A stretch of 64,000 nucleotides of DNA from Candidatus Shapirobacteria bacterium (lineage in GTDB: Bacteria > Patescibacteriota > Microgenomatia > UM-FILTER-40-11), in contig JAGVBK010000003.1 in the NCBI GenBank assembly GCA_020059745.1, forward strand, positions 1,123-65,122. Reading direction: 5' to 3'. Each line of letters starts with the position of its first letter. Positions within the stretch are counted from its first letter, which is position 1. The translations under genes were made by a program, and so were the position numbers. Shown here in pieces: positions 35,463 through 64,000 of this stretch. Below the pieces are notes generated by a model. The model was not told the DNA's origin, did not search any database, and worked only from the letters and a program-made list of their open reading frames with translations.

Positions 35463-35463
35463 A

Positions 35464-36426: not shown

Positions 36427-36455
36427 ATTTTTCGTACAAAGGATAACTAAAAAAA

Positions 36456-36478
36456 CTCACCGGTTTGGTGGGTTTTTT
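36456..36478 (+). terminator. Rho-independent terminator (CTCACC/GGTGGG stem, T6)
   Basis: Sequence actcaccggtttggtgggtttttt follows the 35464..36426 gene. The next gene has a strong RBS GGAGGTG. Confidence 0.55.
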
Positions 36479-36503
36479 CTTTTCTGGAAAGGAGGTGAGA
36501 TAA

Positions 36504-37070: not shown

Positions 37071-37133
37071 AAATCTAATTTAGATTCTCAGGTCACCTAA
37101 GCTAGGCTTGGGTGACCAATAGAGGTTAAATAA

Positions 37134-43513: not shown

Positions 43514-43595
43514 AAAAAAACCTCCATAATTACTATAAGGTATTTAATTATATCAAATTAGTTCAAAAGAACAAAGTTTTAAGGCTAGTTTGAGG

Positions 43596-44327: not shown

Positions 44328-44365
44328 ATATTGATTTTACCATTTGTTGTATAATTGCTACACCA

Positions 44366-46118: not shown

Positions 46119-46161
46119 CTCTTGTTTATTTTAACACGGCAGTTATGCTATATTTAAATTA

Positions 46162-46177
46162 TGGAGGCAATATTGCC
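46162..46177. promoter_or_regulatory. Perfect 16-bp palindrome GAGGCAATATTGCCTC in the trmD/GT2 divergent region (candidate operator)
   Basis: Perfect dyad symmetry, read directly from the sequence. It lies between the trmD start (46118, -) and the GT2 start (46202, +). Confidence 0.4.
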
Positions 46178-46201
46178 TCTATAGTTCTTGAAAGGAAAAA
46201 A

Positions 46202-47344
46202 ATGAGAGTAGTCAACATGCTGGCCACCTATAATGAAAAAGATAATGTTGGCCCGATGGTGGAAACCCTGGAGAGGATTGCCAAAGACCTTTCTGAGGGG
46301 CAAAACCCTAAGTATGAATTTGTTAATTTGGTGGTGGATAGTCATTCTCCTGACGGGACCGGAGATGTAGTTAGAGAACTTGCTAAAAAGAGAAAAAACC
46401 TTTTTCTTCTGGAGACTCCAAGAGGGCTAGGGGTTTCTCTTATCCACGGCTACCGTTATGCCATGGAAGAGCTTAAGGCTGATGTGGTTATCCCTAACGA
46501 TTGTGACTTTCAGTGGGATCCGGAATTGATTCCGCAAATGCTTGAAAAAATTGAGGAAGGCTATGATGTGGTTGTTCCTTCCAGACATATTAAAGGAGGC
46601 AAAGATAATTTTAATTCCTTCAGAAAACTTACCCATTTTGTTTCCAACACTCTTTTTAACTACTACTGGGCAGGCATAAGGGAAGTAAAAGACCTAGCTG
46701 GAAATTTTAAGGCCATAAGAGTTAAAAATGTGCTTGATAAAGTGGAGCTCGACAAGCTTAATGTTAAGGGCTTTGTCATTCAGTCAACCATGATTTATGA
46801 GCTTTCCAAAACCGGAGCAAAGTTTGTAGAAATTCCGGCAGTTTTTGGGAATAGGAGAGCCGGAGAAAGCAAAGTCGGTTTAAGCAAACAATTTTTTAAG
46901 GATATTTTCGAAACCGTAAAAAACGCCACAAGAATAAGAATTGAGCGCTCGCGCCAATTTATTAAATTTGGAACAGTCGGCTTTATTGGTTTTATAGTTA
47001 ATTCTCTTGGGCTTGAGCTTTTTTACAGGATTGGCCTTGCTCCCGGAGTAGCCGCTGCTTTTGGCGCAGAGTTGGCAATTATTTCAAACTTCACCTTAAA
47101 CAATCTCTGGACTTTTTCCGAAAGAAAAATATTTAAACCGGCAGATATTGTTAAAAAGTTTTTAATGTTTAACCTGACTTCAGCAGGTGCGATTGCTATC
47201 CAGTTTATTGTAGTTGGCTTTGGAACCAGATTAACCGGGGACAGCCTAAGGCAGCTTTGGTTGGTGATTGCCATCGGCTTTTTTATCATTCCATACAACT
47301 GGTTTATGTATAACCGGGTTATTTGGAAGAAAAAAAGTGCTTAA
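46202..47344 (+). CDS. GT2 polyprenol-phosphate sugar synthase (Dpm1-like) fused to a C-terminal GtrA-like 4-TM domain
   Basis: The track start at 46145 is probably too far upstream. MRVVNMLATYNEKDNV follows an AAAGGA RBS. GT-A motifs (SHSPDGTGD, DxD-like PNDCD). The C-terminus FIKFGTVGFIGFIVNSLGLELFYR matches GtrA-family helices. Confidence 0.7.
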   Translation: MRVVNMLATYNEKDNVGPMVETLERIAKDLSEGQNPKYEFVNLVVDSHSPDGTGDVVRELAKKRKNLFLLETPRGLGVSLIHGYRYAMEELKADVVIPNDCDFQWDPELIPQMLEKIEEGYDVVVPSRHIKGGKDNFNSFRKLTHFVSNTLFNYYWAGIREVKDLAGNFKAIRVKNVLDKVELDKLNVKGFVIQSTMIYELSKTGAKFVEIPAVFGNRRAGESKVGLSKQFFKDIFETVKNATRIRIERSRQFIKFGTVGFIGFIVNSLGLELFYRIGLAPGVAAAFGAELAIISNFTLNNLWTFSERKIFKPADIVKKFLMFNLTSAGAIAIQFIVVGFGTRLTGDSLRQLWLVIAIGFFIIPYNWFMYNRVIWKKKSA

Positions 47345-48370
47345 TGATTTAGCACAAAAAATTAAATCCCAAAAATTATTTAAAAAGGAAAATTTCCTTT
47401 TATTTTTTTGGCCTTTTCAATTCCTTATTATTGGTTTAGTAATAGGCTATTTTGTCTCAAGAATTACTGTGGATAGATCCCATGATGTGGTCGGCGAGGT
47501 TCACCAATTCCAGGCTGAATATCCTTTTATTAACTCTTTAATGGCCTGTGATTTTTCAGAACAGAAAGCCTTAAAACCGTTTAAGGAAAAGATTAAAGAC
47601 TATATTGAAAACAGTAAAAAAAGAAATAAAGTTTCTCATGTTTCAGTCATTTTTAGAGACTTAAAAAAAGGAGACTGGTTCGGTGTGGAGGAAAACAGCG
47701 AGTTTATCCCCGCCAGTCTTCTGAAAGTTCCTCTTATGATGGCGTATTTAAAAGAAGCTGAAGAAAACCCGGGGATTTTAAGTGAAAAAATATACTTTGA
47801 TGGTGTGCATGAGTACACTACCACCAGAAACATAATTCCCACAGCCATTTTGGAAGAAGGAGACTACACAGTCGAAGAGTTAATAATGATGATGATTATC
47901 TATTCCGATAACGATGCTCTTGAGGTTTTGTTTAAACACATAAATAATTATAAGGAACTAGGTTCTTTTTACTTCAATTTGGGTCTCGGTCTTTTTGACG
48001 CGACACTTAAAGAAGGAGACGGTGCTGTTTCGGTCAGGTCATATTCCTCACTTTTTAGAATACTTTACAACGCCTCTTATCTTAACAAAAGAATGTGTCA
48101 AACAAAGCACTTGAAATTCTTTCAACGGTAGAATTTCGTGACGGTTTAAGAGCAAAATTACCTCCGGAAATAAAAATTGCCCATAAATTTGGAGAAAGAG
48201 GAACACGCGATGGTTTCCAACTTCACGACTGCGGCATTGTGTATTATCCGGAAAGGCCGTATCTTTTATGTGTTATGACCAGGGGCCAGGATATGGATAG
48301 CTTAAAAGAAGTGATCCAAGATATTTCATTTATGGTTTACAGCGAAGTATCAAAAAGCACTTACAAATAA
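47334..48370 (+). pseudogene. Class A beta-lactamase-like serine hydrolase (membrane-anchored), split by a 1-nt frameshift
   Basis: The first frame (to 48131) has an N-terminal TM, SxxK (PASLLK) and SDN (YSDNDALEV). Frame +1 from ~48086 continues SNKALEILSTVEFRDGLRAKLPPEIKIAHKFGE (KTG-like KFG). The junction is in the cttaacaaaagaatg A-run. Confidence 0.55.
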
Positions 48371-49545
48371 GGAGTCCAATCTGCAACCGGCGCAGTATTT
48401 TGGGCAATAAAGTTAATTGCAAAAAGGTAAACTGCGGGAATAATAATAAAAAGGGCAATTTTAAATTCTTTCTTTTGTAAAAACTCGTCAAAAGCAATAA
48501 GGCTGAAAGGAATTAAAGGAAGGCTGTAGCGGGCAAGATCACGGTGGGCTACAAATAATGTGGCACTGAAAAAAACTCCGGCAAAACTTGCCAAAGCGAA
48601 AAGCTTTTTCTTTATCAAAAAAACCACGGTTAAAGCTCCTAGCAGATATTGCCAAACCATGTCTTCTCTCCAAAAGTCTCCCAGCCAGCTTCTTTGGGGA
48701 GAAAAAGCTTGGTAAGGAGGGAAAAAGAGATGAAAATTATCACCGGAATGAAAATACGCCCAAAAATTTCCGGTTCTTATCTGGTAGAATCCGAAAACCA
48801 GCAATGCGGACAGGGGAATTAAAAGCAAAGGCAAAGACGGTTTTGCAATGTGGTTAAAAAGGTTTTTAAATGAAAAAGCTTTGCCTTTTTCTTTAATCAT
48901 TTTGTAAAAAAGGAAAATTTCAAAACCTGCAAAAAGAAGAATGCCCGGGCTTTTTGTTATTTGAGCCAATCCTCCGAAAATCCCTGCTAAAAGCAAATCA
49001 AGATAAACGTTTTTCTTTTTGGAAAAGAGATTGTTTTCTACCTTATCAAAAGCACTTTTGAAAAAATATATTGAGCTTAAGACAAAGAAAAGAAACATTG
49101 GTTCCGGGCTGCCGACTGCTTTGACTGCCACCCAGCGGGCCGGGAAAATAAGAAATAATAGGCTGAGGGAAAAAGGATCTTTTGAAAGTTTAAATTTATA
49201 AACCAAAAGATAAAAAGAAAAAAGGCAAAGTATAGAAAAAATCAAAGTAGAGCCAAGCATTGCCCAAGTTCCCGGCAGGAAAAGATCAAATACAAAGATT
49301 GAAAAAGGGTAACCGGGAAGGTGGGCCGGGTAATACTCCAGAGGTGTTGGCAAAGAGAACCTGCTTGCGATTTGAGCTTGATCATACCAGGTTTTGGCAA
49401 TGACAATATAATTTGGGCCGTCGTAGTTTTTAAAGACCGTTGTTATTCCTTCTTTTAGGTCGAAGAAAAAAGGCAGCCAGACAAATAAAGTTGCCAAAAA
49501 GGCAGCCAGAGTTAAGAAAAAAAGGTCTTTTTTTACTTTGCCCAC
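48361..49545 (-). CDS. Multi-pass membrane protein, putative GT-C-like glycosyltransferase (DUF2029/PIG-V-like)
   Basis: 394 aa with ~10 TM helices and a loop NYDGPNYIVIAKTWYD. GTG start in the track. Assignment is tentative. Confidence 0.35.
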   Translation of the reverse strand: MGKVKKDLFFLTLAAFLATLFVWLPFFFDLKEGITTVFKNYDGPNYIVIAKTWYDQAQIASRFSLPTPLEYYPAHLPGYPFSIFVFDLFLPGTWAMLGSTLIFSILCLFSFYLLVYKFKLSKDPFSLSLLFLIFPARWVAVKAVGSPEPMFLFFVLSSIYFFKSAFDKVENNLFSKKKNVYLDLLLAGIFGGLAQITKSPGILLFAGFEIFLFYKMIKEKGKAFSFKNLFNHIAKPSLPLLLIPLSALLVFGFYQIRTGNFWAYFHSGDNFHLFFPPYQAFSPQRSWLGDFWREDMVWQYLLGALTVVFLIKKKLFALASFAGVFFSATLFVAHRDLARYSLPLIPFSLIAFDEFLQKKEFKIALFIIIPAVYLFAINFIAQNTAPVADWTPYL

Positions 49546-49604
49546 TAGGTAAATGATAACAAAAACACGGTGTTTATGCTAATATTTTAATAAAGGAGAG
49601 GTGT

Positions 49605-50309
49605 ATGAAAAAACTTAGAGAACTTTCTTTGTTCTTTCCGGCTTATAACGAGCAGGAAAATATAGAAAACACAGTGGAAAAGGCTATCCCCGTGCTTTCT
49701 CAGGTTGCTGAAAAGTACGAGCTTATTATTGTCAATGACGGTTCGAAAGACAATACCGGGAAAATTGCCGCAAAACTGGCCCAAAAATACCCCTTTATCA
49801 GCGTAATTACCCATAACCCCAACCGCGGTTACGGTGGAGCGGTAAAATCAGGGCTTTACCATAGTAAGTATGAATGGATAGTTTTTACAGATTCAGACGG
49901 ACAGTTTGATTTTTCAGAAGTTGTCAAATTTATAGAAAAGCAAAAAGAGACAGGTGCTGATCTTGTAATCGGATATTATCTTAAAAGAGCGGTTAGTCCG
50001 ATAGTGATTTTTACTTCTAAATTGTGGGAATTTTTGGTATTCTTTCTTTTTGGTTTGAAAGTTACTGACACTGACTGTGGATTTAAGATGATAAGAAAAG
50101 AAGTTGTAGAAAAGATCCCGAAGCTTGAGGCGGAAAGAGGCCCTTTTATTACCAGCGAATTTTTAATTAAAGCTAAAAAAGCGGGTTTTAAATTTGCCGA
50201 GGTGGGGGTGAATCACTATCCAAGAAAAGGGGGCAAGGCTACAGGCAGAAGCTTTAAGGTTATCCTTTCCGGATTATCTGATCTTTTAAGGCTGCGCTTT
50301 TCAATATAA
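49605..50309 (+). CDS. GT2 polyprenol-phosphate mannose/glucose synthase (Dpm1-like)
   Basis: LSLFFPAYNEQENI...YELIIVNDGSKDNTG...RGYGGAV...DSD. 234 aa. RBS AAAGGAGAGGTG. Confidence 0.8.
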   Translation: MKKLRELSLFFPAYNEQENIENTVEKAIPVLSQVAEKYELIIVNDGSKDNTGKIAAKLAQKYPFISVITHNPNRGYGGAVKSGLYHSKYEWIVFTDSDGQFDFSEVVKFIEKQKETGADLVIGYYLKRAVSPIVIFTSKLWEFLVFFLFGLKVTDTDCGFKMIRKEVVEKIPKLEAERGPFITSEFLIKAKKAGFKFAEVGVNHYPRKGGKATGRSFKVILSGLSDLLRLRFSI

Positions 50310-50311
50310 AT

Positions 50312-51859
50312 ATGGAAAAGGTTTTTAGTGAGCTCAAACGCTACTGGCCGATTATTCTTATTGTTTTAATTTCTCTTACCCTCAGGCTTTATAGAATTTC
50401 TTCTTACATGACCTTTTTAGGAGACGAAGGGAGGGATGCCTTGGTTTGGCTGAGAATGGTAAGAAACGGAAAGCTGACGCTTATTGGCCCCCAAACCTCA
50501 ATCGGCAACATGTATTTAGGTCCTCTTTTTTACTATTTAATGCTTCCCTTTTATTTTGTTTTAGGAACGGCCGGTCCCTCGGTTGGGACAGCTCTTTTTG
50601 GCGGAGCAACCACTTTTCTTCTTTGGTATGTAGGGAAAAACTGGTTTTCTTTCCGGGTTGGCTTGTTTGCCGCTTTACTTTATGCTCTTTCTCCGGTAGC
50701 CATTGTCCTTTCGCGTTCTGCCTGGAACCCTAATATTATGCCCTTTTTTGCCTTGCTTTCTGCCTGGGGAATTTGGCAGTTTTGGCAAAAAGAAAACTTT
50801 CAGTGGTTGGCTTTGGAGGGGATAATCCTTTCCATAATTGTCCAGTCCCACTATCTTGGTTTGTTAATCATTCCCTTGGTGGGAGTTTTTTTTACAATTA
50901 AGTTTGTAAGCCTTATTAAGAATAAAGATAAAAACTTGAAAAAATACCTTTTAAATTTTTTCCTTTGTGTTTTTGTTTTTGTTTTCCTCACCTTTGTGCC
51001 GCTTCTTTGGTTTGATTTAAGACATGGCTTTATAAATTATAATTCGTTTTACAAGTTTTTTTCAGAAAGACAGACAACGGTTAATTTTAAGCCCTACAAG
51101 GCCATTCCAAATTTTTGGCCTCTTTGGAAAATGTTTGTAACCAGGCTGCTTGCGGCAAAAGATGAGCTCGTCGGGCTTTGGCTTTCAATTGCAATTATCC
51201 TAGGAGGAATTTTCATTGCTGCTTTTAATTTTAAAAGCGAACTAAAAAGGATATTAAAAAACAAAAACTTAAAACCGCTTCCTCCGGGCGTTGCCATTAT
51301 TCTTGCTTGGTTAGGGATAGGGCTTTTGGGTATGGGCCTTTACAAACAGCACATTTATGACCACTACTTTGGCTTTCTTTTTCCGGCTTTGTTTTTATTC
51401 ACTGCAGCTTTGCTCTCCAGGGTTTGGAAGCTTCAGTACCCGGGAAAGCTTTTGGCTTTGGTTTGTTTTTCAATTATTCTCCTTTACTCTTTAAAAGAAT
51501 CTCCCCTCAAAGATGAGCCGGGTTTTCAAATGCAGAAAACCAGGGAAATTAGCAAAAAAATAATTGAAGAATCGAAAGGGGAGCCTTTTAACTTGGGTTT
51601 AATTGCCAAACAAAATTATGATGCAGGCTACCGCTATTTCTTGGAAAAAGAAGGCCGCAAGGCAGTTGAGATTAATGCCTTAAAGCCTGAGGAAACAATA
51701 ACCAAGCAGCTTTTTGTTGCCTGTGAAGACGAAAAATGCGAGCCAATAGGCCACCCCAATGCTGAGATTGCCAATTTTGGCTGGGCAAAAATAGAAGAAG
51801 AATGGACCTTTCCCTGGGGAACAAAACTCTTTAAGCTGGTTCATTATGAGAAACAATAA
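50312..51859 (+). CDS. GT-C-like multi-pass membrane glycosyltransferase, paralogous family B (member 1)
   Basis: 515 aa. Conserved first-loop motif FLGDEGRDALVWLRMVRNGKLTLIGPQTSIGNMYLGPLFYY, shared with the 51869 and 55598 genes. Confidence 0.55.
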   Translation: MEKVFSELKRYWPIILIVLISLTLRLYRISSYMTFLGDEGRDALVWLRMVRNGKLTLIGPQTSIGNMYLGPLFYYLMLPFYFVLGTAGPSVGTALFGGATTFLLWYVGKNWFSFRVGLFAALLYALSPVAIVLSRSAWNPNIMPFFALLSAWGIWQFWQKENFQWLALEGIILSIIVQSHYLGLLIIPLVGVFFTIKFVSLIKNKDKNLKKYLLNFFLCVFVFVFLTFVPLLWFDLRHGFINYNSFYKFFSERQTTVNFKPYKAIPNFWPLWKMFVTRLLAAKDELVGLWLSIAIILGGIFIAAFNFKSELKRILKNKNLKPLPPGVAIILAWLGIGLLGMGLYKQHIYDHYFGFLFPALFLFTAALLSRVWKLQYPGKLLALVCFSIILLYSLKESPLKDEPGFQMQKTREISKKIIEESKGEPFNLGLIAKQNYDAGYRYFLEKEGRKAVEINALKPEETITKQLFVACEDEKCEPIGHPNAEIANFGWAKIEEEWTFPWGTKLFKLVHYEKQ

Positions 51860-51868
51860 CTTTTTAAA

Positions 51869-53338
51869 TTGTCTTTTATGAAAAAAAGCCCTACCAACTT
51901 TCTTCTTTTTTTAATCCTTGGTGCTTCAGCTTTTTTTAGGCTTTATCGGCTGGGCGATCTTTTAGGCTTTTGGTATGACCAGGGCAGGGATGCTTTAGTC
52001 ATTTGGGATCTTTTAAACTATGGAAAGTTTTTTTTAATCGGTCCGGTAACCGGAATAGACGGCATTTATCTGGGCCCTTTTTATTACTACCTTATTGCTC
52101 CTTTTTACTGGCTCGGAAAAGGGAACCCGGTTTTCCCGGCTGCAGGAATAGTTTTTCTTACCCTTGGCTCAATTTACCTAATCTTTTATTTAGCTAAAAA
52201 AATATACAACCCGCAAGTTGGTGTTTTGGCGGCATTTTTATATGGTTTCTCTTACAGCTTGGTTACTTTTTCAAGATGGCTTTCCAACCCAACGCCTTTA
52301 CCCTTTTTTACCATGGTTGTTCTTATTGGTCTTTTTCTCTTTATTAACGGCAAGAAAAAAGCTTTGCTTTGGACTGCTTTTATAATTGGCTTGTGCCTTC
52401 AGCTTGAAGCTGCTTCAGCTGTCTTTTTTCTTCCTGCCACTCTGGCAATTTTATTTTTGGAAAAAGAAGTTTTTAAAGATAAAAGGATTTTAATTCTTTC
52501 TTTTCTTGCTTTTTTTATTACCTTGCTGCCGCAAATTTTATTTGATATCCGCCACGAGGGGGTGCTTCGGGCTGCTTTTAATAAATTTTTAGTGACGGAG
52601 AAAAGTTTTAAGCTTTCTTTATGGCAAACCTTTAGATTAAGGCTTTTGACCTATTATGATGTGTTTTTTGCAAAGCTTTTTCCCGGCAGCAAAATTTTAA
52701 AATTAGTTTCTTTAGCCTCGTTTTCCGCAGGTTTTCTTTTCTTTAGAAAAAGGGTATTAACAAAAGGAGGGAAGATGCTTGCGATTTGGCTGGCTGCTCC
52801 TTTAGTTGGTTTTTTGTTTTATCAAGGTAATAATGGCTATGTCTGGGACTATTATTTTACCGGCGTTGTTCCGGCGTTTATTATCCTTTTTGCCGCTTCT
52901 TTAGGTTTTCTTTTGGAAAAAAGAGCTTACCAAATTGCGGTGATGGTCTTTTTGCTTCTTTTTGCTGTTTCCAATGTCAGACAGATCGGTAATTATCACA
53001 AAACCGGTATTGGCATTACTTTAAAAGCGCAGAAATGGGCTATTGACTGGATATATAAAGACGCAGACGGCAGTGAGTTTAATATTGACGCTTATGTGCC
53101 CCCCCAGATTTATTATTCCTATTCATATCTTTTTAAATGGTATGGAAAAAGTAAATACGGTCGGGAACCCGAGACAAACCTGGTTAAAAACCTGTATACT
53201 TTATATGAGCCGGACGGTGAGCATCCCCAGTTTTTAGAAGGTTGGCTTTTAAGGCAGGATACAATCGGCAAAGTGGTTAAAAGCGACTTTTGGGGAGACA
53301 TTACTGTCCAAAAAAGAGAAAGAGTAATGTATGAATAA
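51869..53338 (+). CDS. GT-C-like multi-pass membrane glycosyltransferase, paralogous family B (member 2)
   Basis: 489 aa. LLGFWYDQGRDALVIWDLLNYGKFFLIGPVTGIDGIYLGPFYYY is a paralog of the 50312 gene. Confidence 0.55.
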   Translation: MSFMKKSPTNFLLFLILGASAFFRLYRLGDLLGFWYDQGRDALVIWDLLNYGKFFLIGPVTGIDGIYLGPFYYYLIAPFYWLGKGNPVFPAAGIVFLTLGSIYLIFYLAKKIYNPQVGVLAAFLYGFSYSLVTFSRWLSNPTPLPFFTMVVLIGLFLFINGKKKALLWTAFIIGLCLQLEAASAVFFLPATLAILFLEKEVFKDKRILILSFLAFFITLLPQILFDIRHEGVLRAAFNKFLVTEKSFKLSLWQTFRLRLLTYYDVFFAKLFPGSKILKLVSLASFSAGFLFFRKRVLTKGGKMLAIWLAAPLVGFLFYQGNNGYVWDYYFTGVVPAFIILFAASLGFLLEKRAYQIAVMVFLLLFAVSNVRQIGNYHKTGIGITLKAQKWAIDWIYKDADGSEFNIDAYVPPQIYYSYSYLFKWYGKSKYGREPETNLVKNLYTLYEPDGEHPQFLEGWLLRQDTIGKVVKSDFWGDITVQKRERVMYE

Positions 53339-54089: not shown

Positions 54090-54093
54090 TTAA

Positions 54094-56917: not shown

Positions 56918-56923
56918 CCTCAC

Positions 56924-58591
56924 ATGCTTAAAAAAATTTACCCTTGGATTTTACTGTTGCTGCTTTCCTTTTTTTCTTTTAAATCCCTTCTTCGGCCGGG
57001 ATATTTTCCGATGCACGACGACATGCAGGCAATGCGCCTGCTTCAGCTTGATAAATGCCTTAGAGACGGCCAGTTTCCCTGCCGCTGGGTGCCTGACATG
57101 GGTTATGGTTATGGCTATCCTCAGTTTGTTTATTATTCTCCCTTGCCATATTATGTGATGGAGCTTTTCCATCTTTCAGGGTTATCTTTTCTTGATTCAG
57201 TTAAAGCCGGTTTTGCTTTGAGCTTTATTCTTTCGGGTTTGGCAATGTTTTTACTGGGCAAGTCTCTATGGGGGAAGCTTGGCGGGCTTGTCAGCGCGAT
57301 TTTTTATGTTTATGCTCCCTACCGGGCTTCAGACGCTTTTAGCAGGGGGGCAGTGGGAGAGTTTTGGGCTTTGGTATTTTTGCCGTTAATTTTCTGGTCG
57401 GTTCATGAATATGTTAAAACCGAGAAAAGTAAGTACCTTGTCTTTTTGGCTCTTTCTTATGGCAGCCTTCTTGTTACTCACAACATTACCTCCCTTGCTT
57501 TTACTCCCTTTTTAGCCTTATGGTCACTTTTTTTGCTTTATCTTTACAAAAAATGGAAATTGGTTTTAAAGCTTGTCCCTGGAGGGCTTTGGGGAATTGG
57601 TTTGGCATCATTTTTTCTTCTGCCGGTTATTTTTGAGAAAAAGTTTGCCCATACCGAAACCATGATTATGGGTTATTTTAACTATTTAGCTCATTTTGTC
57701 TCCTTAAAACAGCTTTTCTGGTCAGGCCACTGGGGTTTTGGCTCAAGCGAGCTTGGGCCAAATGACGATCTTTCTTTTAGTATTGGAGTTTTGCACTGGC
57801 TTTTTGCCTTAGTTGCTTTGGTTCTTTTCTTTATTAAAGAAAGAAAAGAAAAAATCTTTAAAATTGCAAGTTTTCTTTTTTTGACCGGGCTGATAGCGGT
57901 GTTTATGGCTCACCAACGGTCGGTCTTTATATGGAACAGGCTTCCATTTCTTGAGTACTTCCAGTTTCCCTGGAGGTTTTTAACCATTGTCACTTTTAGT
58001 TTTTCTTCTTTGGCCGGAGCCTTGATATATTTTGTAAAATCAGAGGCAAATAAAAAAACCTTGGCCTTTTTCTTGATTGTTTTAGGAATTTTCTTTAACA
58101 GTTTTTATTTTAATCCAAGGGAATGGTATGACCTTTCTGATGAGGAAAAGTTTTCTGGCGAGCTTTGGCAAAAACAGCTTACCATAAGCATTTTTGACTA
58201 TCTTCCAATTTTTGCGAAGATGCCGCCTAGCAGCGAGGCGCCTGGACTTCCATTGGTGGTTCAGGGGCAGGCGGAAATTTTGGATTACCAAAAAGGCTCA
58301 AATTGGCAAAAAGGAAAAATAAAAGTGTTTTCCGAAAATTCGAAAATTCAAATTCCCTCTTACTATTTTCCCGGTTTTAAGGTTTGGGTTAATGGAAGAG
58401 AAACGGAAATTGACTATAATAATGACCTAGGATTAATAAGAATAACCCTTTCCAGGGGCGAAAACGAAGTTATGCTTAAGCTTACCAAAACACTGCCGAG
58501 AAAAGCGGGGGATTTTTTAACCCTTTTTAGTGTTGGGGCCTTAATTTATTTTTTGTTTTATGAAAAGAATTTTTTCAAAAGAAAATCTTAA
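56924..58591 (+). CDS. GT-C-like membrane glycosyltransferase, tandem triplicated family A (copy 1)
   Basis: 555 aa. N-terminal TM then LLRPGYFPMHDDMQAMRLLQLDKCLRDGQFPCRWVPDMGYGYGYP. Eleven or more TM helices and a ~150-aa C-terminal soluble domain. Confidence 0.55.
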   Translation: MLKKIYPWILLLLLSFFSFKSLLRPGYFPMHDDMQAMRLLQLDKCLRDGQFPCRWVPDMGYGYGYPQFVYYSPLPYYVMELFHLSGLSFLDSVKAGFALSFILSGLAMFLLGKSLWGKLGGLVSAIFYVYAPYRASDAFSRGAVGEFWALVFLPLIFWSVHEYVKTEKSKYLVFLALSYGSLLVTHNITSLAFTPFLALWSLFLLYLYKKWKLVLKLVPGGLWGIGLASFFLLPVIFEKKFAHTETMIMGYFNYLAHFVSLKQLFWSGHWGFGSSELGPNDDLSFSIGVLHWLFALVALVLFFIKERKEKIFKIASFLFLTGLIAVFMAHQRSVFIWNRLPFLEYFQFPWRFLTIVTFSFSSLAGALIYFVKSEANKKTLAFFLIVLGIFFNSFYFNPREWYDLSDEEKFSGELWQKQLTISIFDYLPIFAKMPPSSEAPGLPLVVQGQAEILDYQKGSNWQKGKIKVFSENSKIQIPSYYFPGFKVWVNGRETEIDYNNDLGLIRITLSRGENEVMLKLTKTLPRKAGDFLTLFSVGALIYFLFYEKNFFKRKS

Positions 58592-60266
58592 AAAAGACAT
58601 TTTTTCCCTAGGACTTGTCTTGCTTTTATCTGTTCCCGCTTTTTTGCCATTGCTAAGGCCCGGGTATTTTCCAATGCATGATGATATGCAGGTAATAAGG
58701 CTAGAGCAGATGGAAAAATGCTTTCTTGACGGCCAGATTCCCTGCCGCTGGTCGCCAGACCTGGGAGCCGGTTTTGGCCAGCCGATGTTTAATTATTATT
58801 CTGCCTTTCCTTATTACTTTGGCGTTTTTTTCAGGATTTTTGGCTTTCAGTTTATTGACATTGTAAAGCTTCTCTTTCTTTTTTCTCTTGCTCTTTCCGG
58901 TGTCTTTATGTACTTTTTAGGCAAGCAATTTTTCGGGAAGCTGGGAGGAATAACGGCAGCGGTTTTTTATGTTTATGCGCCTTATCATGCGGTTGATATT
59001 TATGTTAGGGGAGCTTTGGCTGAATCCTGGGCAATAACATTTTTCCCCTTGGTCTTTTTACTGGTTTATAAACTTATTAAAGAAGGGAAACCAATATTTT
59101 TGGTTGGGTCGGTTTTATCTTTATTTCTTGTTTTTACCTCTCATAATGTTATGACCCTGATCTTTACTCCGGTTTTGCTTTTGTGGTCATTTTTTGCTAT
59201 GGCCGTTACGGGCCAAAAACGCCTTAAAGAGGTTTTGCTTTTTTTCTTTTGGTCGTTTTGTCTTTCTGCCTTTTTTATATTGCCGGCTTTTTTTGAAAAA
59301 GGGTATGTACTGATTGATTCTTTAAAAGCCGACTATTTTGATTTTCGTTTGCACTTTGCCAGTAAAAAACAGCTTCTTTGGTCAAGGCATTGGGGTTTTG
59401 GCGGCTCACTCGGGCCTGACAGCGATATGTCGCTCCAGATTGGCTGGCCGCACTGGCTTTTAGCCTGTTTTTCGGCTTTGTCTTTAGCGGCATATACTCT
59501 TAAAAAAAACTTATTAAGGAAAAGCGAAACTCTTTTAATCCCTGTCTTTTTTTTAAGTCTTTTTCTGGTTTCAGTTTTTTTTACTCACCGGCTGTCTTTG
59601 TTTTTTTGGGAAAATCTTCCTCTTCTTTCCTATGCCCAGTTTCCGTGGCGGTTTTTAGCGCTTGTTATTTTCAGTTCATCATTCTTGGCTGGGTTTATCT
59701 CCTTTTGGTTAAAAGACAAGGTAAAAGGAAAGCTTGGAATTTTACTTAGTCTCTTTATAATATTTAGCGCCATTTTTTTAAATTATTCTTATTTTAAACC
59801 CCAGGTGATGTACGGTTTTGCTACAGATGATTGGAAGTTGAGCGGAGAAGAGCTTAATAAGCAGAAAAAATCCGCTCTTTTTGACTATCTGCCTAAGCAG
59901 GTAAAAGACGCTCCTTTGCAAATTGCCCCCGATTCTCCCTGGATTGTTTCCGGCGAGGCCGAAATTTCCGAGTTTGAAAAAAGGACAAATTTTTTCAGAA
60001 TGACCGTTTCCGCAAAAGGAGATCTGCCTGCTACAATAAGGGTACCGGTTTTTGATTTTCCTAATTGGGAAATTTATGCAGATCAAAAAGTAATTCCCCA
60101 TAATTCGGAAAACAAACAAGGAGTGATTGAGTTTGAGATTGGCAGCGGCAAACACACCGTGGTCGGCTGGTTCAGAAATACCCCGCTAAGGGATCTTGCT
60201 AATGCGGTCACGCTTTTTTCTTTTGGCTCGCTGATTGTTTATTTTATTCTTAAAGAAGAAAGATGA
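58560..60266 (+). CDS. GT-C-like membrane glycosyltransferase, tandem triplicated family A (copy 2)
   Basis: 568 aa. LLRPGYFPMHDDMQVIRLEQMEKCFLDGQIPCRWSPDLGAGFGQP. Colinear with copy 1. Confidence 0.55.
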   Translation: MKRIFSKENLKKDIFSLGLVLLLSVPAFLPLLRPGYFPMHDDMQVIRLEQMEKCFLDGQIPCRWSPDLGAGFGQPMFNYYSAFPYYFGVFFRIFGFQFIDIVKLLFLFSLALSGVFMYFLGKQFFGKLGGITAAVFYVYAPYHAVDIYVRGALAESWAITFFPLVFLLVYKLIKEGKPIFLVGSVLSLFLVFTSHNVMTLIFTPVLLLWSFFAMAVTGQKRLKEVLLFFFWSFCLSAFFILPAFFEKGYVLIDSLKADYFDFRLHFASKKQLLWSRHWGFGGSLGPDSDMSLQIGWPHWLLACFSALSLAAYTLKKNLLRKSETLLIPVFFLSLFLVSVFFTHRLSLFFWENLPLLSYAQFPWRFLALVIFSSSFLAGFISFWLKDKVKGKLGILLSLFIIFSAIFLNYSYFKPQVMYGFATDDWKLSGEELNKQKKSALFDYLPKQVKDAPLQIAPDSPWIVSGEAEISEFEKRTNFFRMTVSAKGDLPATIRVPVFDFPNWEIYADQKVIPHNSENKQGVIEFEIGSGKHTVVGWFRNTPLRDLANAVTLFSFGSLIVYFILKEER

Positions 60267-61984
60267 AAAAAATAATTGAGAAAGAGTTTTTTTGGATTGT
60301 TCTTCTTTTAGGGCTTTCCTTTCTTTTAATTTTACCAATTTTTAAAAGAGGTTTTTACCCTTTTCATGATGAGTCTCATGTGGCTAACCTTTACCAAATG
60401 GTGAGAGCTGTTTCTTCAGGCCAAATACCGCCGCGTTGGGCGCCTGACTTTAGTTTTAACTATGGATATCCTTTTTTTAATTTTAACTATCATTTGCCTT
60501 TTTACCTTGGTGCCTTTTTCAATCTTGTTTTCGGCCTTAGCCTGGTTTGGTCTTTGAAAATCGTTTTTGCCTTAAGCGTTCCTTTGTCAGCCCTTGCTTT
60601 TTACAAGCTTGGAAGAAAGTTTTCCTCTTCTGGTTTTTCGTTTTTTGCGGCCATGATTTACTGCCTTGCTCCTTATCGGGCAGTTGATCTTTATGTTAGA
60701 GGAGCGGTGGGAGAGCTTTGGGGGTTTGTTTTCATGCCCTTGGTTTTGCTTTCTTTTATAAACCTCATTGAGAAAAGAAGCCTTAAAAAAATAATTTTTG
60801 CCGGGCTTTCCCTGGCGGGGCTGGTTATTTCCCACAGCTTAACCACCATTGTTTTTATGCCTTTTGCGGCCTTGTTTCTTTTTTCGTGTATTCTTTTTGG
60901 GAAAGATAAAAAAAACGCCATTATTTCTTCTTTTTTTGGGCTGGTTTTAGGCTTGTCTTTAAGTGCTTACTACTGGCTGCCTGCTTTTCTGGAAAAAAAG
61001 CTAATGCAGCCCGGTACGCCTTTTAATCCTTTTGACCATTTTCCTTTTATTAAGCAGTTAGTTATTCCTTCCTGGGGATACGGAGCTTCCGTTTGGGGGC
61101 CGGGCGACGGCATGTCTTTTCAGATCGGAATTATCAATATCTTTTTTATTTTATTTTCTTTATTTTTGCTTTTGTTTTTCAGGAAAAAAACGGAAAAGTT
61201 TAATCTTAAGCTTTTTTTTGTTTCCTTAACTTTGTTTTTTTTAAGTCTTTTTTTAATGAATATTCGCTCGGGCTTTATTTGGTCTGCTTTTCCTTTGGGT
61301 GAATATGTTCAATTTCCCTGGAGATTTTTAATTATTTCCACTTTTTTTAGCTCGCTTTCTTTAGTGTTTGTGGAAAGGGTTATTGACCTTGAAAAAAAGG
61401 CGATTAGTAAATACGGGATACTGGCTCTTGTCTTTTTTTCCTTTTTTATAAACAAGCCTTATTTTAAACCTGAAAAAGAAGTTTTTACCGACGATGATTA
61501 CTTTTTAAAAAGATTTTTTATTGACCGGATTTCAACCGGGAAAAGCAAGGAACTCTCCGAAGCCTACTTTTTTTTAAGTGAGGATTATCTGCCTTTACCG
61601 GTTTGGGTTGAGAAAAGGCCCGACTCTTTGCCGGAAGAAAAAGTTGAGTTTTTGGCCGATCAGCCAAATGGGAAAATTACCTACAAAGAGATAACCCCGG
61701 TTAAATATGAAATTCAAGTTGTTTCTGAAAAGGAAGGCAAGGTAATAATTAATAACTACAACTATCCAGGCTGGACAGCAAAGGTAAACGGAAAAATTGC
61801 AGAGATAAAAACTGAAAAGCCTTATGGCAACATGTCAATTGAGGTACCTGCCGGGGCAAGCTCGATTTTGCTTTTCTTTAAGGAAACGCCGCTTCGGCTT
61901 GCAGCAGATTTAGTTAGTCTTTTCTCTTTTTTATTTTCAGCCCTAGCCCTTCTTTTAATAAAAAAAGTGGATTTTAAAAAATGA
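60263..61984 (+). CDS. GT-C-like membrane glycosyltransferase, tandem triplicated family A (copy 3, most divergent)
   Basis: 573 aa. FKRGFYPFHDESHVANLYQMVRAVSSGQIPPRWAPDF. Same architecture as copies 1 and 2. Confidence 0.5.
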   Translation: MKKIIEKEFFWIVLLLGLSFLLILPIFKRGFYPFHDESHVANLYQMVRAVSSGQIPPRWAPDFSFNYGYPFFNFNYHLPFYLGAFFNLVFGLSLVWSLKIVFALSVPLSALAFYKLGRKFSSSGFSFFAAMIYCLAPYRAVDLYVRGAVGELWGFVFMPLVLLSFINLIEKRSLKKIIFAGLSLAGLVISHSLTTIVFMPFAALFLFSCILFGKDKKNAIISSFFGLVLGLSLSAYYWLPAFLEKKLMQPGTPFNPFDHFPFIKQLVIPSWGYGASVWGPGDGMSFQIGIINIFFILFSLFLLLFFRKKTEKFNLKLFFVSLTLFFLSLFLMNIRSGFIWSAFPLGEYVQFPWRFLIISTFFSSLSLVFVERVIDLEKKAISKYGILALVFFSFFINKPYFKPEKEVFTDDDYFLKRFFIDRISTGKSKELSEAYFFLSEDYLPLPVWVEKRPDSLPEEKVEFLADQPNGKITYKEITPVKYEIQVVSEKEGKVIINNYNYPGWTAKVNGKIAEIKTEKPYGNMSIEVPAGASSILLFFKETPLRLAADLVSLFSFLFSALALLLIKKVDFKK

Positions 61985-62679
61985 AACTTTCTGTGGTTGT
62001 CCCTGTTTTTAACGAAGAAAAAACCATTAAAAAGATACTTGAAAAAGTATTGTCTGAAAAAACTCCGAAAGAGGTGATTGTGGTTGATGACGGCTCTTGT
62101 GACAAAACAAAAGAAATTCTTAAAGATATTAAAGACGAAAGAGTGAAAATAATCTTTCATGAGCAGAACAAAGGCAAAGGAGCGGCAGTGAGAACAGGTA
62201 TTAAAAATGCCGAAGGAGATTTTTTGATTATTCAAGACGCAGATTTGGAGTACGATCCGGAATGTTACCAGAAATTGGTCAATATTGTTTCTAAAGATAT
62301 AAAAGTTGTTTACGGAACAAGATTAAAAAATTTAAAATTCAGGCTTTTTGGAAAAAATAAAACTCCCATGCCACTGCATTTTGCCGCCAATCGTTTTTTG
62401 ACTTTACTGACAAATTTTCTTTACGGTTCAAAAATTACCGACATGGAAACCTGCTATAAACTCATGGCCAAAGAAGTTTACCAAAGTCTTGAGCTTGTTT
62501 CCGATAAATTTGAAATTGAGCCGGAAATAACGGCAAAAATATTAAAAAAAGGATTTAAAATTATTGAGATGCCAATTGTCTTTAAGCCAAGAACTTATAA
62601 GCAAGGGAAAAAAATAAAAACCAAAGACGCTTTTGCTGCTGTTTGGTCGCTTGTTAAATATAGAATAGTAAACAAATGA
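61981..62679 (+). CDS. GT2 polyprenol-phosphate sugar synthase (Dpm1-like)
   Basis: LSVVVPVFNEEKTI...VIVVDDGSCDKT...QDADLEYD. 232 aa. Confidence 0.8.
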   Translation: MKLSVVVPVFNEEKTIKKILEKVLSEKTPKEVIVVDDGSCDKTKEILKDIKDERVKIIFHEQNKGKGAAVRTGIKNAEGDFLIIQDADLEYDPECYQKLVNIVSKDIKVVYGTRLKNLKFRLFGKNKTPMPLHFAANRFLTLLTNFLYGSKITDMETCYKLMAKEVYQSLELVSDKFEIEPEITAKILKKGFKIIEMPIVFKPRTYKQGKKIKTKDAFAAVWSLVKYRIVNK

Positions 62680-64000
62680 GAACCAAACTTCTTTTATTAT
62701 TAATTTTCATTATTGCAATCTTTCTTTTTTCTTCTACCCTTTCTTGCTTTTTTGTTCAGGATGACTTTTTCCAGTTTAAGATGGCGGAGGTTGAAAAAGC
62801 AGGGGACTTTTTTGCATTTTTTCTTCCGGGAAATAAATTCGGTTACAGGTTTTACCGTCCTTTGACGCATCAGGGCTTTTTCTTTCTCGGCAGAAGTCTT
62901 TTTGGCCTGAATCCTCTTGGTTTTAGATTAATAATGACAGGGTTTTTCTTAGCCAACATTTATTTGGTTTACCGTTTGGCGGAAAAGATGGTTTCAGAGA
63001 AAGTTGGCCTTATTGCCGGCTTTCTTTATGCAATTTGTTCCTGCCATTTTACCTCTTTATCTTATATTTCCACTTTTGGGAGTATTGCCGTTGCATTTTT
63101 TATCTTTTTGACAATTCATTTTTATCTTAAGGAAAAAAAGCTTGCTCCCATTATTTTTGTTTTGGCTTTATTGTCTTGGGAAACGGCAGTTACTCTCCCC
63201 CTGGTCCTTTTGCTGGCTGAAATGTTTGGCGAAAAAAGATGGGAAAGGCTGATTATATATTTTTTAATTGCCGCAGGATATGTTGCTTTTCGTTTGTCGT
63301 TTTTTGCTTTTCCGAAAGGGGACAGCTATCAAATGTCCCTGACCGTTAAAAGTATTTTGAATACTTTGGCTTGGTATGTTTTTTGGGCGCTAGGAGCTCC
63401 TGAAAACATGGTTGATTTTGTTGGCTCAGGATTCAGGCCCACGGAGCGTTTTAACGAAGTATTTGGCTTAAGCGGTAAGCTTATTGTTGCCGGAGCAATG
63501 CTCGTCTTAATAGCGGTTGGCATCAGGTTTTTTCAGCTTTTGCTTCAAAAAAACAATAAACAAATCCGGGCTGAAATAATTGTCTTCTCCGGCTGGTTTT
63601 TGATTTTTCTTTTGCCTTTTCTTTTTTGGCCGCAGCACAAATTTGCGTATTATCTTGAAGCACCCCTTTTCGGGTTTTGCGTTCTAATTTCTTTGGCTAT
63701 CACTAAACTTCCCAAACTTTTTGCTTATTTGGTTTTTCTTTCTTTTATTACCACTTCACTTTTAACTGTCAACTTTTACAGAAATAACTATTGGACGGTA
63801 GGCAGGTCTAAACTTGCCAAAGAGTTAATTGACGATTTAAAAGTTAATTTCCCTGATGTTCAAAAAGGTTCTATTTTTTATTTTAAAAATGACCCTGAAT
63901 ATAAATTTATTTCCAAGGAATGGGGAGGATCAAGCTCTCAAGCAAAAATTGCAATTTCAGGCTGCAATGCGCCCCAAATAATTTATGGCGATAAAACTCT
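62676..64000 (+). CDS. GT-C membrane glycosyltransferase (PMT_2/ArnT-like), 3' end beyond the window
   Basis: The ATG at 62676 overlaps the upstream stop (ATGA). Translation MRTKLLLLLIFIIAIFLFSSTLSCFFVQDDFFQFKMAEV... has a DD motif in the first loop. The multi-TM ORF stays open to the window end, so it is absent from the ORF track. Confidence 0.6.
   Translation, partial: MRTKLLLLLIFIIAIFLFSSTLSCFFVQDDFFQFKMAEVEKAGDFFAFFLPGNKFGYRFYRPLTHQGFFFLGRSLFGLNPLGFRLIMTGFFLANIYLVYRLAEKMVSEKVGLIAGFLYAICSCHFTSLSYISTFGSIAVAFFIFLTIHFYLKEKKLAPIIFVLALLSWETAVTLPLVLLLAEMFGEKRWERLIIYFLIAAGYVAFRLSFFAFPKGDSYQMSLTVKSILNTLAWYVFWALGAPENMVDFVGSGFRPTERFNEVFGLSGKLIVAGAMLVLIAVGIRFFQLLLQKNNKQIRAEIIVFSGWFLIFLLPFLFWPQHKFAYYLEAPLFGFCVLISLAITKLPKLFAYLVFLSFITTSLLTVNFYRNNYWTVGRSKLAKELIDDLKVNFPDVQKGSIFYFKNDPEYKFISKEWGGSSSQAKIAISGCNAPQIIYGDKT

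Follow-up and report, generated by a model that had tools for sequence, protein, structure and literature searches.

A Microgenomates-conserved gene cluster for predicted lipid-carrier-dependent glycosylation in Candidatus Shapirobacteria

We analyzed a 64,000-nucleotide stretch (hereafter the window) of contig JAGVBK010000003.1 from a Candidatus Shapirobacteria bacterium and identified, at 46145-64000, a cluster of 14 closely packed genes (g01-g14) encoding four family 2 glycosyltransferases (GT2), nine polytopic membrane proteins resembling glycosyltransferases of fold C (GT-C), and one beta-lactamase-like protein. With moderate confidence, we regard this region as the local copy of a Microgenomates-conserved cluster for glycosylation that draws on lipid carriers at the outer face of the cytoplasmic membrane, with an envelope heteropolysaccharide as the preferred acceptor. 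The general mechanism, based on a lipid carrier and GT-C enzymes, is the firmer part of this proposal and appears quite likely; a polymer acceptor (an envelope glycopolymer) is suggested tentatively. The genes, the last of which runs past the end of the window, are as follows.

g01, 46145-47344, forward strand: GT2 fused to a C-terminal GtrA/DPMS domain with four transmembrane (TM) segments, 399 residues, RJR23690
g02, 47268-48370, forward strand: membrane-anchored class-A beta-lactamase-like serine hydrolase, split by a frameshift into open reading frames (ORFs) 47268-48131 and 48095-48370
g03, 48361-49545, reverse strand: short PMT-like GT-C, 394 residues, divergent, the conserved partner of g01
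g04, 49605-50309, forward strand: Dpm1/ArnC-like GT2, 234 residues, first gene of the g04-g14 operon
g05, 50312-51859, forward strand: GT-C of class B, 515 residues
g06, 51869-53338, forward strand: GT-C, class B paralog, 489 residues
g07, 53331-54089, forward strand: Dpm1/ArnC-like GT2, 252 residues
g08, 54094-55614, forward strand: GT-C, PMT_2/ArnT-like, 506 residues
g09, 55598-56917, forward strand: GT-C of class B', 439 residues, accessory member
g10, 56924-58591, forward strand: GT-C of class A, trio position 1, 555 residues, YfhO/PTPS-related
g11, 58560-60266, forward strand: GT-C of class A, trio position 2, 568 residues
g12, 60263-61984, forward strand: GT-C of class A, trio position 3, 573 residues, RJR23678, annotated as hypothetical
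g13, 61981-62679, forward strand: Dpm1/AglJ-like GT2, 232 residues
g14, 62676 to beyond 64000, forward strand: GT-C with an ArnT-like fold, 441 of 470 residues in the window, C4578_03950, annotated as hypothetical

The number and order of the GT2 and GT-C-like genes given in the initial annotation of this DNA agreed exactly with our ORF calls and Pfam searches, and its paralog classes A, B and B' were reproduced by all-against-all BLAST. Three details of the gene description needed correction: g03 is on the reverse strand, the beta-lactamase-like gene is split by a frameshift, and a tenth GT-C gene is located in the window outside the cluster. Two observations place the arrangement far beyond chance: nine of the 14 genes exceeded a curated Pfam threshold for GT2 or a family of the GT-C clan, and it was found again in the related genomes that we examined. 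From g04 to g14, the spacing between genes was only -32 to +9 nucleotides (nt), with the stop codon of g13 overlapping the ATG of g14 (ATGA); these genes therefore form one translationally coupled operon of ~14.4 kb. In public records, the cluster proteins correspond to RJR23676-RJR23690, and full-length g14 (470 residues) to P0121. In these records, g03 (by PGAP), g05 and g08 are named phospholipid carrier-dependent glycosyltransferases, and the class A proteins and g14 are called hypothetical; g05 and g08 were also designated 'ArnT-like' by JGI.

We further checked the occurrence of this cluster in other organisms by scanning a class A alignment against one genome per prokaryotic species and confirming the matches by tblastn (n = 424). 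Counts of related loci given below refer to the best 80 of these 424 matches, which were mostly named Microgenomates and included Woesebacteria, Daviesbacteria, Shapirobacteria, Collierbacteria and Amesbacteria. The flanks of these loci reached 10 kb from the class A gene (full flanks in 48 loci), and their ORFs were classified by comparison with the window proteins. Parts of a recurring gene order were present in all 80 loci: S1, C3 (opposite strand), S4, B5, S7, C8, A10, A11, A12, in which S1, S4 and S7 are GT2 genes of the g01, g04 and g07 types, C3 and C8 are g03- and g08-type genes, B5 is g05-type, and A10-A12 are the class A trio. In the 48 loci with full flanks, the median counts per 21 kb were six for GT-C-like genes and two for GT2 genes, and gene order in the closest relative among them (L004) matched that of the window, down to the g13- and g14-type genes. 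Orthologs of g01 were found in 26 of the 80 loci, usually beside a g03-type gene, and g08-type genes in 66. The g09 type had a best-hit homolog in a single related locus, g13-g14-type pairs were present in few, and no homolog of g02 was detected in any of the 80. Judged from this distribution, g02, g09 and the g13-g14 pair appear to be accessory, being absent or rare elsewhere.

Among the related loci were some on complete chromosomes (615 kb and 902 kb). With a size of ~16-18 kb, the cluster takes up roughly 2-3% of genomes of 0.6-0.9 Mb. The initial annotation had considered a pathway of this size unusual for a reduced genome of the Candidate Phyla Radiation (CPR), an expectation contradicted by the recurrence of the same order in related Microgenomates loci, complete chromosomes of 0.6-0.9 Mb among them. 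In the Microgenomates loci examined, the cluster thus appears to be a lineage trait and not a one-off island. A mobile genomic island was rejected: the GC content of the cluster showed no break relative to the rest of the window, tRNA and Rfam scans of the window were empty, and synteny was conserved.

A strongly negative AT skew (-0.19 to -0.24) was observed over the GT-C genes at 54000-62000, probably a consequence of the T-rich codons used for Phe, Leu and Ile in very hydrophobic proteins. Many top-scoring contigs, for example L003, L005 and L006, bore the title 'uncultured Gammaproteobacteria bacterium' or 'Pseudomonadales' (one 'Clostridia'); the cluster that they carried was identical in order to that of metagenome-assembled genomes named as Woesebacteria, Daviesbacteria and Shapirobacteria, and their titles look like placeholder or wrong taxonomy. 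We found no paper describing the cluster in the literature on glycosyltransferases of CPR, Patescibacteria, Microgenomates or Woesebacteria, in a search that covered few subscription journals.

The beta-lactamase-like gene g02 matched the Beta-lactamase2 profile in two pieces, with profile positions 1-158 in the first ORF and 157-214 continuing directly in ORF 48095-48370. The first ORF contained an N-terminal TM anchor and the SxxK (SLLK) and SDN motifs, and the second contained KFG. The split gene may represent either a pseudogene or an assembly error. Given the frameshift and the lack of a g02 homolog in every related locus, a functional role of this gene in the pathway was rejected.

All four GT2 proteins scored above the Pfam threshold for PF00535 (E = 1.8e-19 for g01, 1.1e-30 for g04, 3.5e-27 for g07 and 7.1e-38 for g13) and contained a DxD motif (DCD at residue 119 of g01, DSD at 96 of g04, DMD at 96 of g07 and DAD at 86 of g13); the C-terminus of g01 also matched GtrA_DPMS_TM (E = 2e-14). 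The top solved-structure matches for all four were Pyrococcus furiosus DPMS (5mlz), ArnC and the GtrB homolog sll0501. The alignment of g01 with DPMS 5mlz extended over residues 17-357, including the membrane domain (E = 1.6e-38). The best matches in the Protein Data Bank (PDB) were ArnC (near full length, residues 4-227), GtrB and DPMS for g04, ArnC and DPMS for g07 (residues 7-171), and DPMS 5mlz for g13 (residues 1-219), and chondroitin synthase and similar enzymes aligned to only the N-terminal ~100 residues of the GT2 proteins. By homology, g01, g04, g07 and g13 appear to be of the polyprenyl-phosphate-sugar synthase type. Their sugars are not nameable because none of the four reached an NCBIfam equivalog cut-off (ArnC, AglJ, PgfS, PpgS and Dol-P-hexose transferase models, 44-101 bits against cut-offs of 325-529). 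The best NCBIfam match of g13 was AglJ (E = 7e-29, under its cut-off), and PgfS was among the matches of all four proteins (55-72 bits against a cut-off of 500).

The four GT2 proteins were 23-30% identical to each other, and each had orthologs with up to 71-76% identity in other genomes. They are old, separately conserved paralogs, which would fit different donors, of which the initial annotation had predicted at least four, or different partners, and proves neither. A simple hydropathy scan, used qualitatively since its TM counts contained overlapping segments, revealed one hydrophobic stretch in g04 (residues 130-151) and no TM segment in g07 and g13. No free-standing GtrA gene was present in the cluster, and with intergenic gaps of no more than 59 nt there was no room for one.

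Five of the nine membrane proteins passed a curated GT-C model. These were g03 (PMT, E = 3.9e-10, 40.1 bits against a cut-off of 22.7), g05 (PMT_2, 33.0 bits against 26.1, and also PMT), g06 (PMT_2, 30.2 bits against 26.1), g08 (PMT, E = 8.8e-11, and PMT_2, E = 3.9e-10) and g12 (PTPS_related). The remaining four (g09, g10, g11 and g14) failed such models, and g09 and g14 had no Pfam match. Both PTPS_related and YfhO are families of the Pfam GT-C clan. Within class B, g06 was 27% identical to g05 (E = 1.7e-33), and g09 was linked by BLAST to both (E = 4.5e-11 to g05 and 1.2e-10 to g06), aligning inside class B with the invariant Asp retained. In the all-against-all comparison g14 was linked only weakly, to g06. 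Profile-profile comparison (hhalign) connected the families more firmly: the g08 class was matched by class B (99.4%), the g14 class (91%), class A (84%) and the g03 class (78%), and the match of the g14 class to the g08 class was full length and aligned DD with DE.

AlphaFold models of two proteins, g14 (as full-length P0121) and one class A protein, were searched with Foldseek. The g14 model (predicted local distance difference test score 89) retrieved ArnT (5f15/5ezm) at the top, followed by ALG12, AglB, STT3 and PglB; transporters appeared among its matches at low probability only. The structural matches of the modelled proteins included STT3B, PglB, AglB, AftD, AftA, AftB and Emb. Features of the GT-C fold were found, namely an N-terminal multi-TM module, a first outer loop with juxtamembrane helices and a C-terminal soluble domain, which in the model of class A (~560 residues) is a beta-sandwich followed by a terminal TM helix.

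Multiple alignments of orthologs from the related loci showed that an Asp residue in the first loop, 5-15 residues past TM1, is invariant in every subfamily. It corresponds to D32 in class A (46 sequences, motif HDD/HDE), D38 in class B (39 sequences; GDEG in g05, class motifs GDE/YDQ/HHD), D41/E42 in the g08 class (25 orthologs; FADEAIY, ADE), D42 in the g03 class, where N40 and G43 are also invariant (NYDG, 25 orthologs), and D29/D30 in the g14 class (QDDFF), invariant in 6 orthologs and nearly invariant in 23 homologs. All nine proteins had a short K/R-rich N-terminus ahead of TM1. These N-termini, together with natural fusions in which a cytoplasmic GT2 domain precedes TM1 (see below), suggest that the N-terminus is inside and the Asp loop outside. 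Together, these data support the assignment of the nine membrane proteins to GT-C glycosyltransferases of five subfamilies: g03; g05, g06 and g09; g08; g10-g12; and g14.

That these proteins are instead transporters, flippases or structural proteins, the outcome named in the initial annotation as fatal to its proposal, is extremely improbable and largely refuted. Such a reading could draw on the lack of a significant Pfam match in g09, g11 and g14, on weak NCBIfam matches to 'flippase activity-associated protein Agl23', and on the failure of sequence profiles of all five subfamilies to find anything usable among PDB sequences. It is opposed by the four proteins passing PMT/PMT_2 thresholds, the first-loop Asp conserved in all subfamilies, and the existence of fusions with GT2 synthases.

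The specific family identities suggested earlier did not survive as more than analogies. A bona fide GT39 enzyme combines the PMT N-terminal domain with a C-terminal PMT_4TMC domain (MIR in eukaryotes). Neither PMT_4TMC nor MIR was detected in any cluster protein at E ≤ 0.01, and the PMT/PMT_2 matches were partial (profile positions ~60-240), so that no cluster gene is a bona fide GT39 PMT by this domain test. No NCBIfam ArnT model (GT83) was matched by any membrane protein, and ArnA/ArnB-like genes were not seen in the window. There was also no sequence-level membership in the mycobacterial families GT53 (Emb), GT85 (AftA), GT89 (AftB) or GT87, and no Arabinose_trans or GT87 Pfam match in window genes.

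The two enzyme types were linked by gene adjacency and gene fusion. In the related loci, 110 of 129 plus-strand GT2 genes preceded a GT-C-like gene within 400 nt, and the recurring pairs were S7-C8 (41 loci), S4-B5 (23), S1-C3 on the opposite strand (17) and S7-A10 (10). In one protein (P0122, 697 residues), a g13-type GT2 (72% identical to g13) was fused with a g14-type GT-C (52% identical to g14); P0123 and P0131 shared this architecture by length and Pfam. Another protein (P0195) joined a g07-type GT2 (45% identical, 245 residues) to a class A GT-C. Such natural fusions provide direct evidence, at the level of sequence, that the synthase and the transferase they join would work together. 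Because g07-type synthases adjoin or are fused with class A, g07 may feed both g08 and the trio. A polyprenyl-phosphate sugar as the GT-C donor is suggested indirectly by the neighboring and fused Dpm1-type synthases. Thus, the earlier assignments of the Dpm1-like GT2 proteins as polyprenyl-phosphate-sugar synthases (nearest solved relatives DPMS, ArnC and GtrB), of the membrane proteins as GT-C (Pfam, profile and fold evidence and the acidic residue opening the first outer loop) and of their pairing (conserved adjacency and natural fusions) were corroborated. In four further proteins (P0176, P0181, P0184 and P0237), class A carried a different, non-Dpm1-type GT2 at the N-terminus.

The modular arrangement of these pairs could mean that each GT2/GT-C pair, in the manner of Gtr, CsbB-YfhO or ArnC-ArnT, independently adds a single sugar to an existing molecule such as peptidoglycan, a teichoic-acid-like polymer or a membrane glycolipid. 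Known multi-component transmembrane glycosylation systems operate in this manner (PMC8035078; PMC5836110), pairs recur across loci and are in some cases fused into a single protein, and accessory modules come and go, with g13-g14-type pairs in few loci and the g09 type in one. However, the core order was fixed over deep divergence (orthologs 30-50% identical), all three trio paralogs were retained with one clade each, and the tight translational coupling points to one integrated product. Moreover, the GT-C proteins outnumber the synthases, so several must share donors as in stepwise assembly. We therefore regard independent decoration modules as unlikely.

The class A trio deserves separate description. 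Members g10, g11 and g12 were mutually 31-41% identical (41% between g11 and g10, E = 9e-133; 31-33% between g12 and the other two). Against PTPS_related, g12 scored 27.1 bits (cut-off 26.4), g10 was just under (25.6) and g11 well under, and close homologs carried PF10131, PF09586 (YfhO) or neither label in precomputed Pfam data. By these scores, class A looks like a divergent sister group of YfhO/PTPS_related and not a clear member. The acidic motif was HDD at residues 40-42 in g11 and HDE at 35-37 in g12. A further invariant motif, D425-Y-L-P, opens the soluble domain; it may sit where oligosaccharyltransferases carry WWDxG, and no WWD motif was found in class A. In a neighbor-joining tree of 46 class A sequences, the first, second and third trio genes formed three exact clades, with g11 in the position-2 and g12 in the position-3 clade; members had been grouped by best BLAST hit, a grouping that coincides with gene position and is thus not fully independent. 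The triplication appears to be ancient. At E ≤ 1e-30, the class A profile retrieved 6,807 representatives of 50%-identity clusters.

As publicly annotated (P0001, 526 residues), g10 begins at Met30 of the conserved MHDD motif, dropping TM1, and many database homologs of 520-526 residues seem to share this short start. The long ORF begins 6 nt after the g09 stop and fits homologs of 551-558 residues, and the short start calls are probably wrong. We also observed very long class A relatives with several copies per chain, including P0174 (1093 residues), P0175 (1116 residues), P0183 (3329 residues, six matched stretches), P0230 and P0321, which could be real tandem trio fusions or read-through gene calls.

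A second conserved component was found next to class A in the related loci. A Wzx/MOP-type flippase (Polysacc_synt_3, E = 3e-55) was present in 63 of the 80 loci on the same strand, usually right after class A (29 adjacencies of A10, A11 or A12 with Wzx). It was typically followed by a multi-TM protein of 600-1100 residues (63 of 80 loci), which lacked a Pfam match, was annotated as hypothetical everywhere and resembled class B (hhalign 94%), being weakly GT-C-like. The two genes were located, for example, at 18706-20196 and 20193-21632 in L004 and at 15015-16472 and 16468-19674 in L023. In L004 and L069, the closest relatives with flanks, Wzx was just downstream of the g14-type gene, and by comparison with these loci it may lie just past position 64000 in the present genome. 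Other recurrent neighbors included a GT87-like GT-C (32 loci), another PMT_2-like family, GT2, GT4, RmlD and a methyltransferase. Between the g14-type gene and Wzx, L004 additionally encoded a GT-C-like protein of 519 residues (17092-18651, reverse strand) with NFDEYDH after TM1 and a C-terminal soluble domain; it had no Pfam match and no homolog in the other loci.

The position of Wzx directly after class A in many loci raises the question of whether the trio and the Pfam-less Wzx partner act like oligosaccharyltransferases, or like polymerases or ligases, on an undecaprenyl-diphosphate-linked glycan flipped by Wzx. In favor of this, the best structural matches include STT3B, PglB and AglB, the D425-Y-L-P motif may occupy the site of WWDxG, and in some class A proteins, such as P0176, the fused GT2 is of a non-Dpm1 type. 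On the other hand, P0195 joins class A to a Dpm1-type synthase, favoring a monophosphate-sugar donor, the WWD motif is missing, structural scores fail to separate oligosaccharyltransferases from Pmt or ArnT, and Wzx itself was not observed in the window. Diphosphate-linked donors are, in our view, very unlikely.

In the pathway that we propose, g01, g04, g07 and g13 would each use a nucleotide sugar to load polyprenyl phosphate with its sugar at the cytoplasmic face. The lipid-linked monosaccharides would then be flipped, with the GtrA/DPMS-type domain of g01 as the only recognizable candidate for this step in the window. On the outer face, the nine GT-C enzymes would use these lipid-linked donors, the conserved and presumably catalytic Asp opening their first outer loop. 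The predicted modules are g01-g03, g04 with g05/g06, g07-g08 (probably g07 with the trio as well) and g13-g14. Both the flipping and the order of the steps are part of the prediction. The acceptor may be a wall- or lipid-anchored envelope heteropolysaccharide whose lipid-linked primer would be exported by the Wzx-type flippase. We prefer a glycopolymer acceptor because the transferases outnumber the synthases, the gene order is fixed over deep divergence and the Wzx-type flippase is co-conserved.

Several observations weigh against this proposal. Activity, sugar, lipid carrier and acceptor are all deduced from homology; the profile matches that connect class A and g03 with the PMT_2-like classes reached only 84% and 78%; g04, g07 and g13 have no TM segment, their membrane association being assumed; and a single GtrA-like domain would have to serve four synthases. 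There is no Wzx gene in the window, which ends inside g14, and this genome is expected to have one only by extrapolation from related loci. In addition, neither the window nor the set of recurrent neighbors yielded an initiating phosphoglycosyltransferase, an LCP ligase or a Wzy-type polymerase, which weakens the polymer-assembly version of the proposal.

Another possibility is that the proteins of the cell surface are the acceptors, with the GT-C enzymes transferring polyprenyl-phosphate sugars to Ser/Thr residues of secreted, membrane-anchored or sortase-anchored proteins and the paralogs extending or diversifying the O-glycans. The presence of g03, g05, g06 and g08 in Pfam PMT/PMT_2 is consistent with such a role, and the best structural matches of class A were protein-modifying enzymes. 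Class A homologs carry YfhO/PTPS_related labels, and YfhO-family enzymes glycosylate proteins in streptococci (PMC12041528). Furthermore, secreted proteins rich in Pro/Thr or Ser/Thr are encoded in the window, and a sortase and a SipW-like peptidase are located 8-18 kb upstream of the cluster. However, Pro/Thr-rich linkers are common and unspecific, and the lack of PMT_4TMC/MIR speaks against bona fide GT39 enzymes. Nine transferases and a conserved Wzx exceed the needs of known bacterial O-mannosylation or Pgf systems. No surface-protein gene was conserved beside the cluster within the 10-kb flanks of the related loci, and the sortase of the window is 29 kb from the class A gene. On balance, protein O-glycosylation appears somewhat unlikely but is the main and a serious rival, and the envelope glycopolymer remains our preferred acceptor.

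A bolder version of the glycopolymer proposal is that the locus, Wzx and the Pfam-less partner make a lineage-defining envelope glycoconjugate of Microgenomates, either a surface-layer glycan or what teichoic acids or lipoarabinomannan are in other bacteria, with the class A trio acting as a hetero-oligomeric transferase or polymerase. This is speculative and we consider it doubtful. If true, the glycoconjugate would have a central part in the construction and presentation of the surface of these ultra-small and probably host-attached cells, because the cluster occupies such a share of their small genomes.

Compared with known systems, the cluster consists of parts of known kinds, and its principle is that of multi-component transmembrane glycosylation. 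In the CsbB/GtcA/YfhO and GtlA/GtlB systems of lipoteichoic acid modification, a cytoplasmic GT2 makes a C55-phosphate-linked sugar, a GtrA-family protein flips it and a GT-C transfers the sugar outside (PMC8035078; PMC5836110; PMC7389260). Similarities include the adjacency of the genes and the position of class A in the YfhO/PTPS_related neighborhood. In contrast, there are here four synthases and nine GT-C proteins of five subfamilies instead of one of each, the only GtrA element of the cluster is fused to a synthase, and class A (~560 residues) has the C-terminal beta-sandwich and terminal TM helix, in which it differs from the YfhO of the CsbB system. No teichoic-acid genes were seen in the window, and the host is a reduced-genome CPR bacterium, unlike the Gram-positive hosts of these systems. 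Of the components of a three-component GtrA/GtrB/GtrC-type system, the cluster has paired synthases and transferases, and a GtrA element only as the C-terminal domain of g01.

Streptococcal PgfS/PgfM1/PgfE/PgfM2 and GtrB/PgtC2 (YfhO family) O-glycosylate Ser/Thr-rich regions of surface proteins (PMC5856776; PMC12041528). Like Pgf, the cluster combines a glycosyltransferase of fold A as synthase with YfhO-related GT-C proteins, and Ser/Thr/Pro-rich surface proteins and a sortase are encoded nearby; unlike Pgf, it has no PgfS equivalog match, no adhesin genes inside it, many more transferases, and a Wzx that is co-conserved in relatives. Actinobacterial Ppm1/Pmt enzymes also transfer sugar from a polyprenyl-phosphate donor to protein Ser/Thr residues. 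In the Ppm1/DPA pathways of mycobacteria and corynebacteria (Pmt, PimE, MptA-C, EmbA-C, AftA-D), many GT-C enzymes draw on lipid-monophosphate sugars outside the membrane to build lipoglycans, wall polysaccharide and O-mannosylated proteins. There, as in the cluster, transferases outnumber donor synthases, and AftD, AftA, AftB and Emb are among our structural matches. However, there is no membership at the sequence level, the cluster is a compact operon in contrast to the scattered mycobacterial genes, its enzymes are much smaller, and no decaprenyl-phosphoarabinose pathway was seen in the window. By analogy, the logic of the cluster resembles the assembly of lipomannan/lipoarabinomannan and arabinogalactan, or the extracytoplasmic decoration of Gram-positive wall polymers.

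ArnC/ArnT lipid A modification is similar in that g04 and g07 have ArnC as their best or near-best solved relative and g14 has ArnT as its top fold match, and different in that no NCBIfam ArnT/ArnC equivalog and no ArnA/ArnB were found; CPR bacteria are not known to have lipid A. The archaeal AglJ, Pyrococcus DPMS and AglB systems share with the cluster the full-length DPMS match of g01, AglJ as the best NCBIfam model for g13 and AglB among the structural matches, and the Microgenomates mevalonate pathway linked to a cis-prenyltransferase (PMC6107057) is a further parallel. They differ in that NCBIfam scores were far under equivalog cut-offs, no STT3/WWDxG signature was present, and the window comes from a bacterium and contains FtsEX and M23 peptidoglycan-hydrolase-type genes. 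What sets the cluster apart is its scale (four synthases and nine or more transferases in one operon), the conserved CPR architecture, the ancient class A trio, the Pfam-less Wzx partner and two families that carry the annotation 'hypothetical'.

CPR/Patescibacteria comprise a large share of bacterial diversity, are mostly uncultured and have genomes without many standard pathways, and their envelope chemistry is little characterized. A conserved cluster that probably builds a major surface sugar coat of the lineage offers a testable handle on this envelope. It names candidate enzymes, including the two families annotated as hypothetical, and predicts which synthase feeds which transferase, in agreement with the natural fusions. 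Most Microgenomates retain a mevalonate pathway clustered with a cis-prenyltransferase (PMC6107057), which would supply the polyprenyl carrier; the cluster would in turn account for the retention of this isoprenoid pathway. Should the cluster make a surface coat of glycopolymer or glycoprotein, this coat would be a prime candidate for host attachment and phage recognition and a possible target for lectin- or antibody-based enrichment of cells. Class A is also very large in metagenomes, with thousands of 50%-identity clusters and no solved relative found in PDB by its profile.

Additional genes of interest were identified elsewhere in the window, most of them in a group of sugar-activation and glycan genes just upstream of the cluster.

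Tenth GT-C, 16590-17987, reverse strand: PMT_2/ArnT-like (E = 1.5e-25, 90.7 bits), 465 residues, WDEAWY motif, outside the cluster
RmlA-like protein, 39652-40368, forward strand: NCBIfam RmlA at 240 bits, below the cut-off
GH130 protein, 40365-41309, forward strand: resembles beta-1,2-mannobiose phosphorylase (E = 7e-82, below the cut-off)
344-residue protein, 41281-42315, reverse strand: faint GH88-like match, adjoining GH130
GT4 protein, 42305-43513, reverse strand
SDR protein, 43596-44327, reverse strand
RmlB, 44366-45409, forward strand: dTDP-glucose 4,6-dehydratase, 458.9 bits against a cut-off of 365

A GalE gene was also present upstream of the cluster. The genes at 39652-45409 may supply the cluster with activated sugars, although the linkage of Rml genes to it was weak (RmlB in 6 of 80 loci, RmlD in 13). 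The GH130 and GH88-like neighbors hint at mannoside metabolism close by.

A surface-protein gene cluster was observed at 28106-38418 on the forward strand, encoding a sortase, a 23S-rRNA-IVP-family protein, a 2075-residue protein, a TM-anchored protein of 320 residues, a camelysin-like protein, a SipW-like S26 peptidase and an LTD protein. The 2075-residue protein (29235-35462) contained LTD, SdrD_B, SpaA and DUF11 domains and ended in LPAAG followed by a TM segment and KK, resembling a variant sorting signal; a fiber or pilus assembly unit is possible. Stretches rich in Pro/Thr or Ser/Thr occurred in predicted secreted proteins at 24745-25338 and 5531-6379 and in the N-terminus of 29235-35462 (all forward strand), and would be candidate O-glycosylation sites if the protein-glycosylation reading were right. 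The tenth GT-C gene was located between uvrB and a gene for a 464-residue membrane protein, and its homologs were found in the cluster flanks of 4 of the 80 loci.

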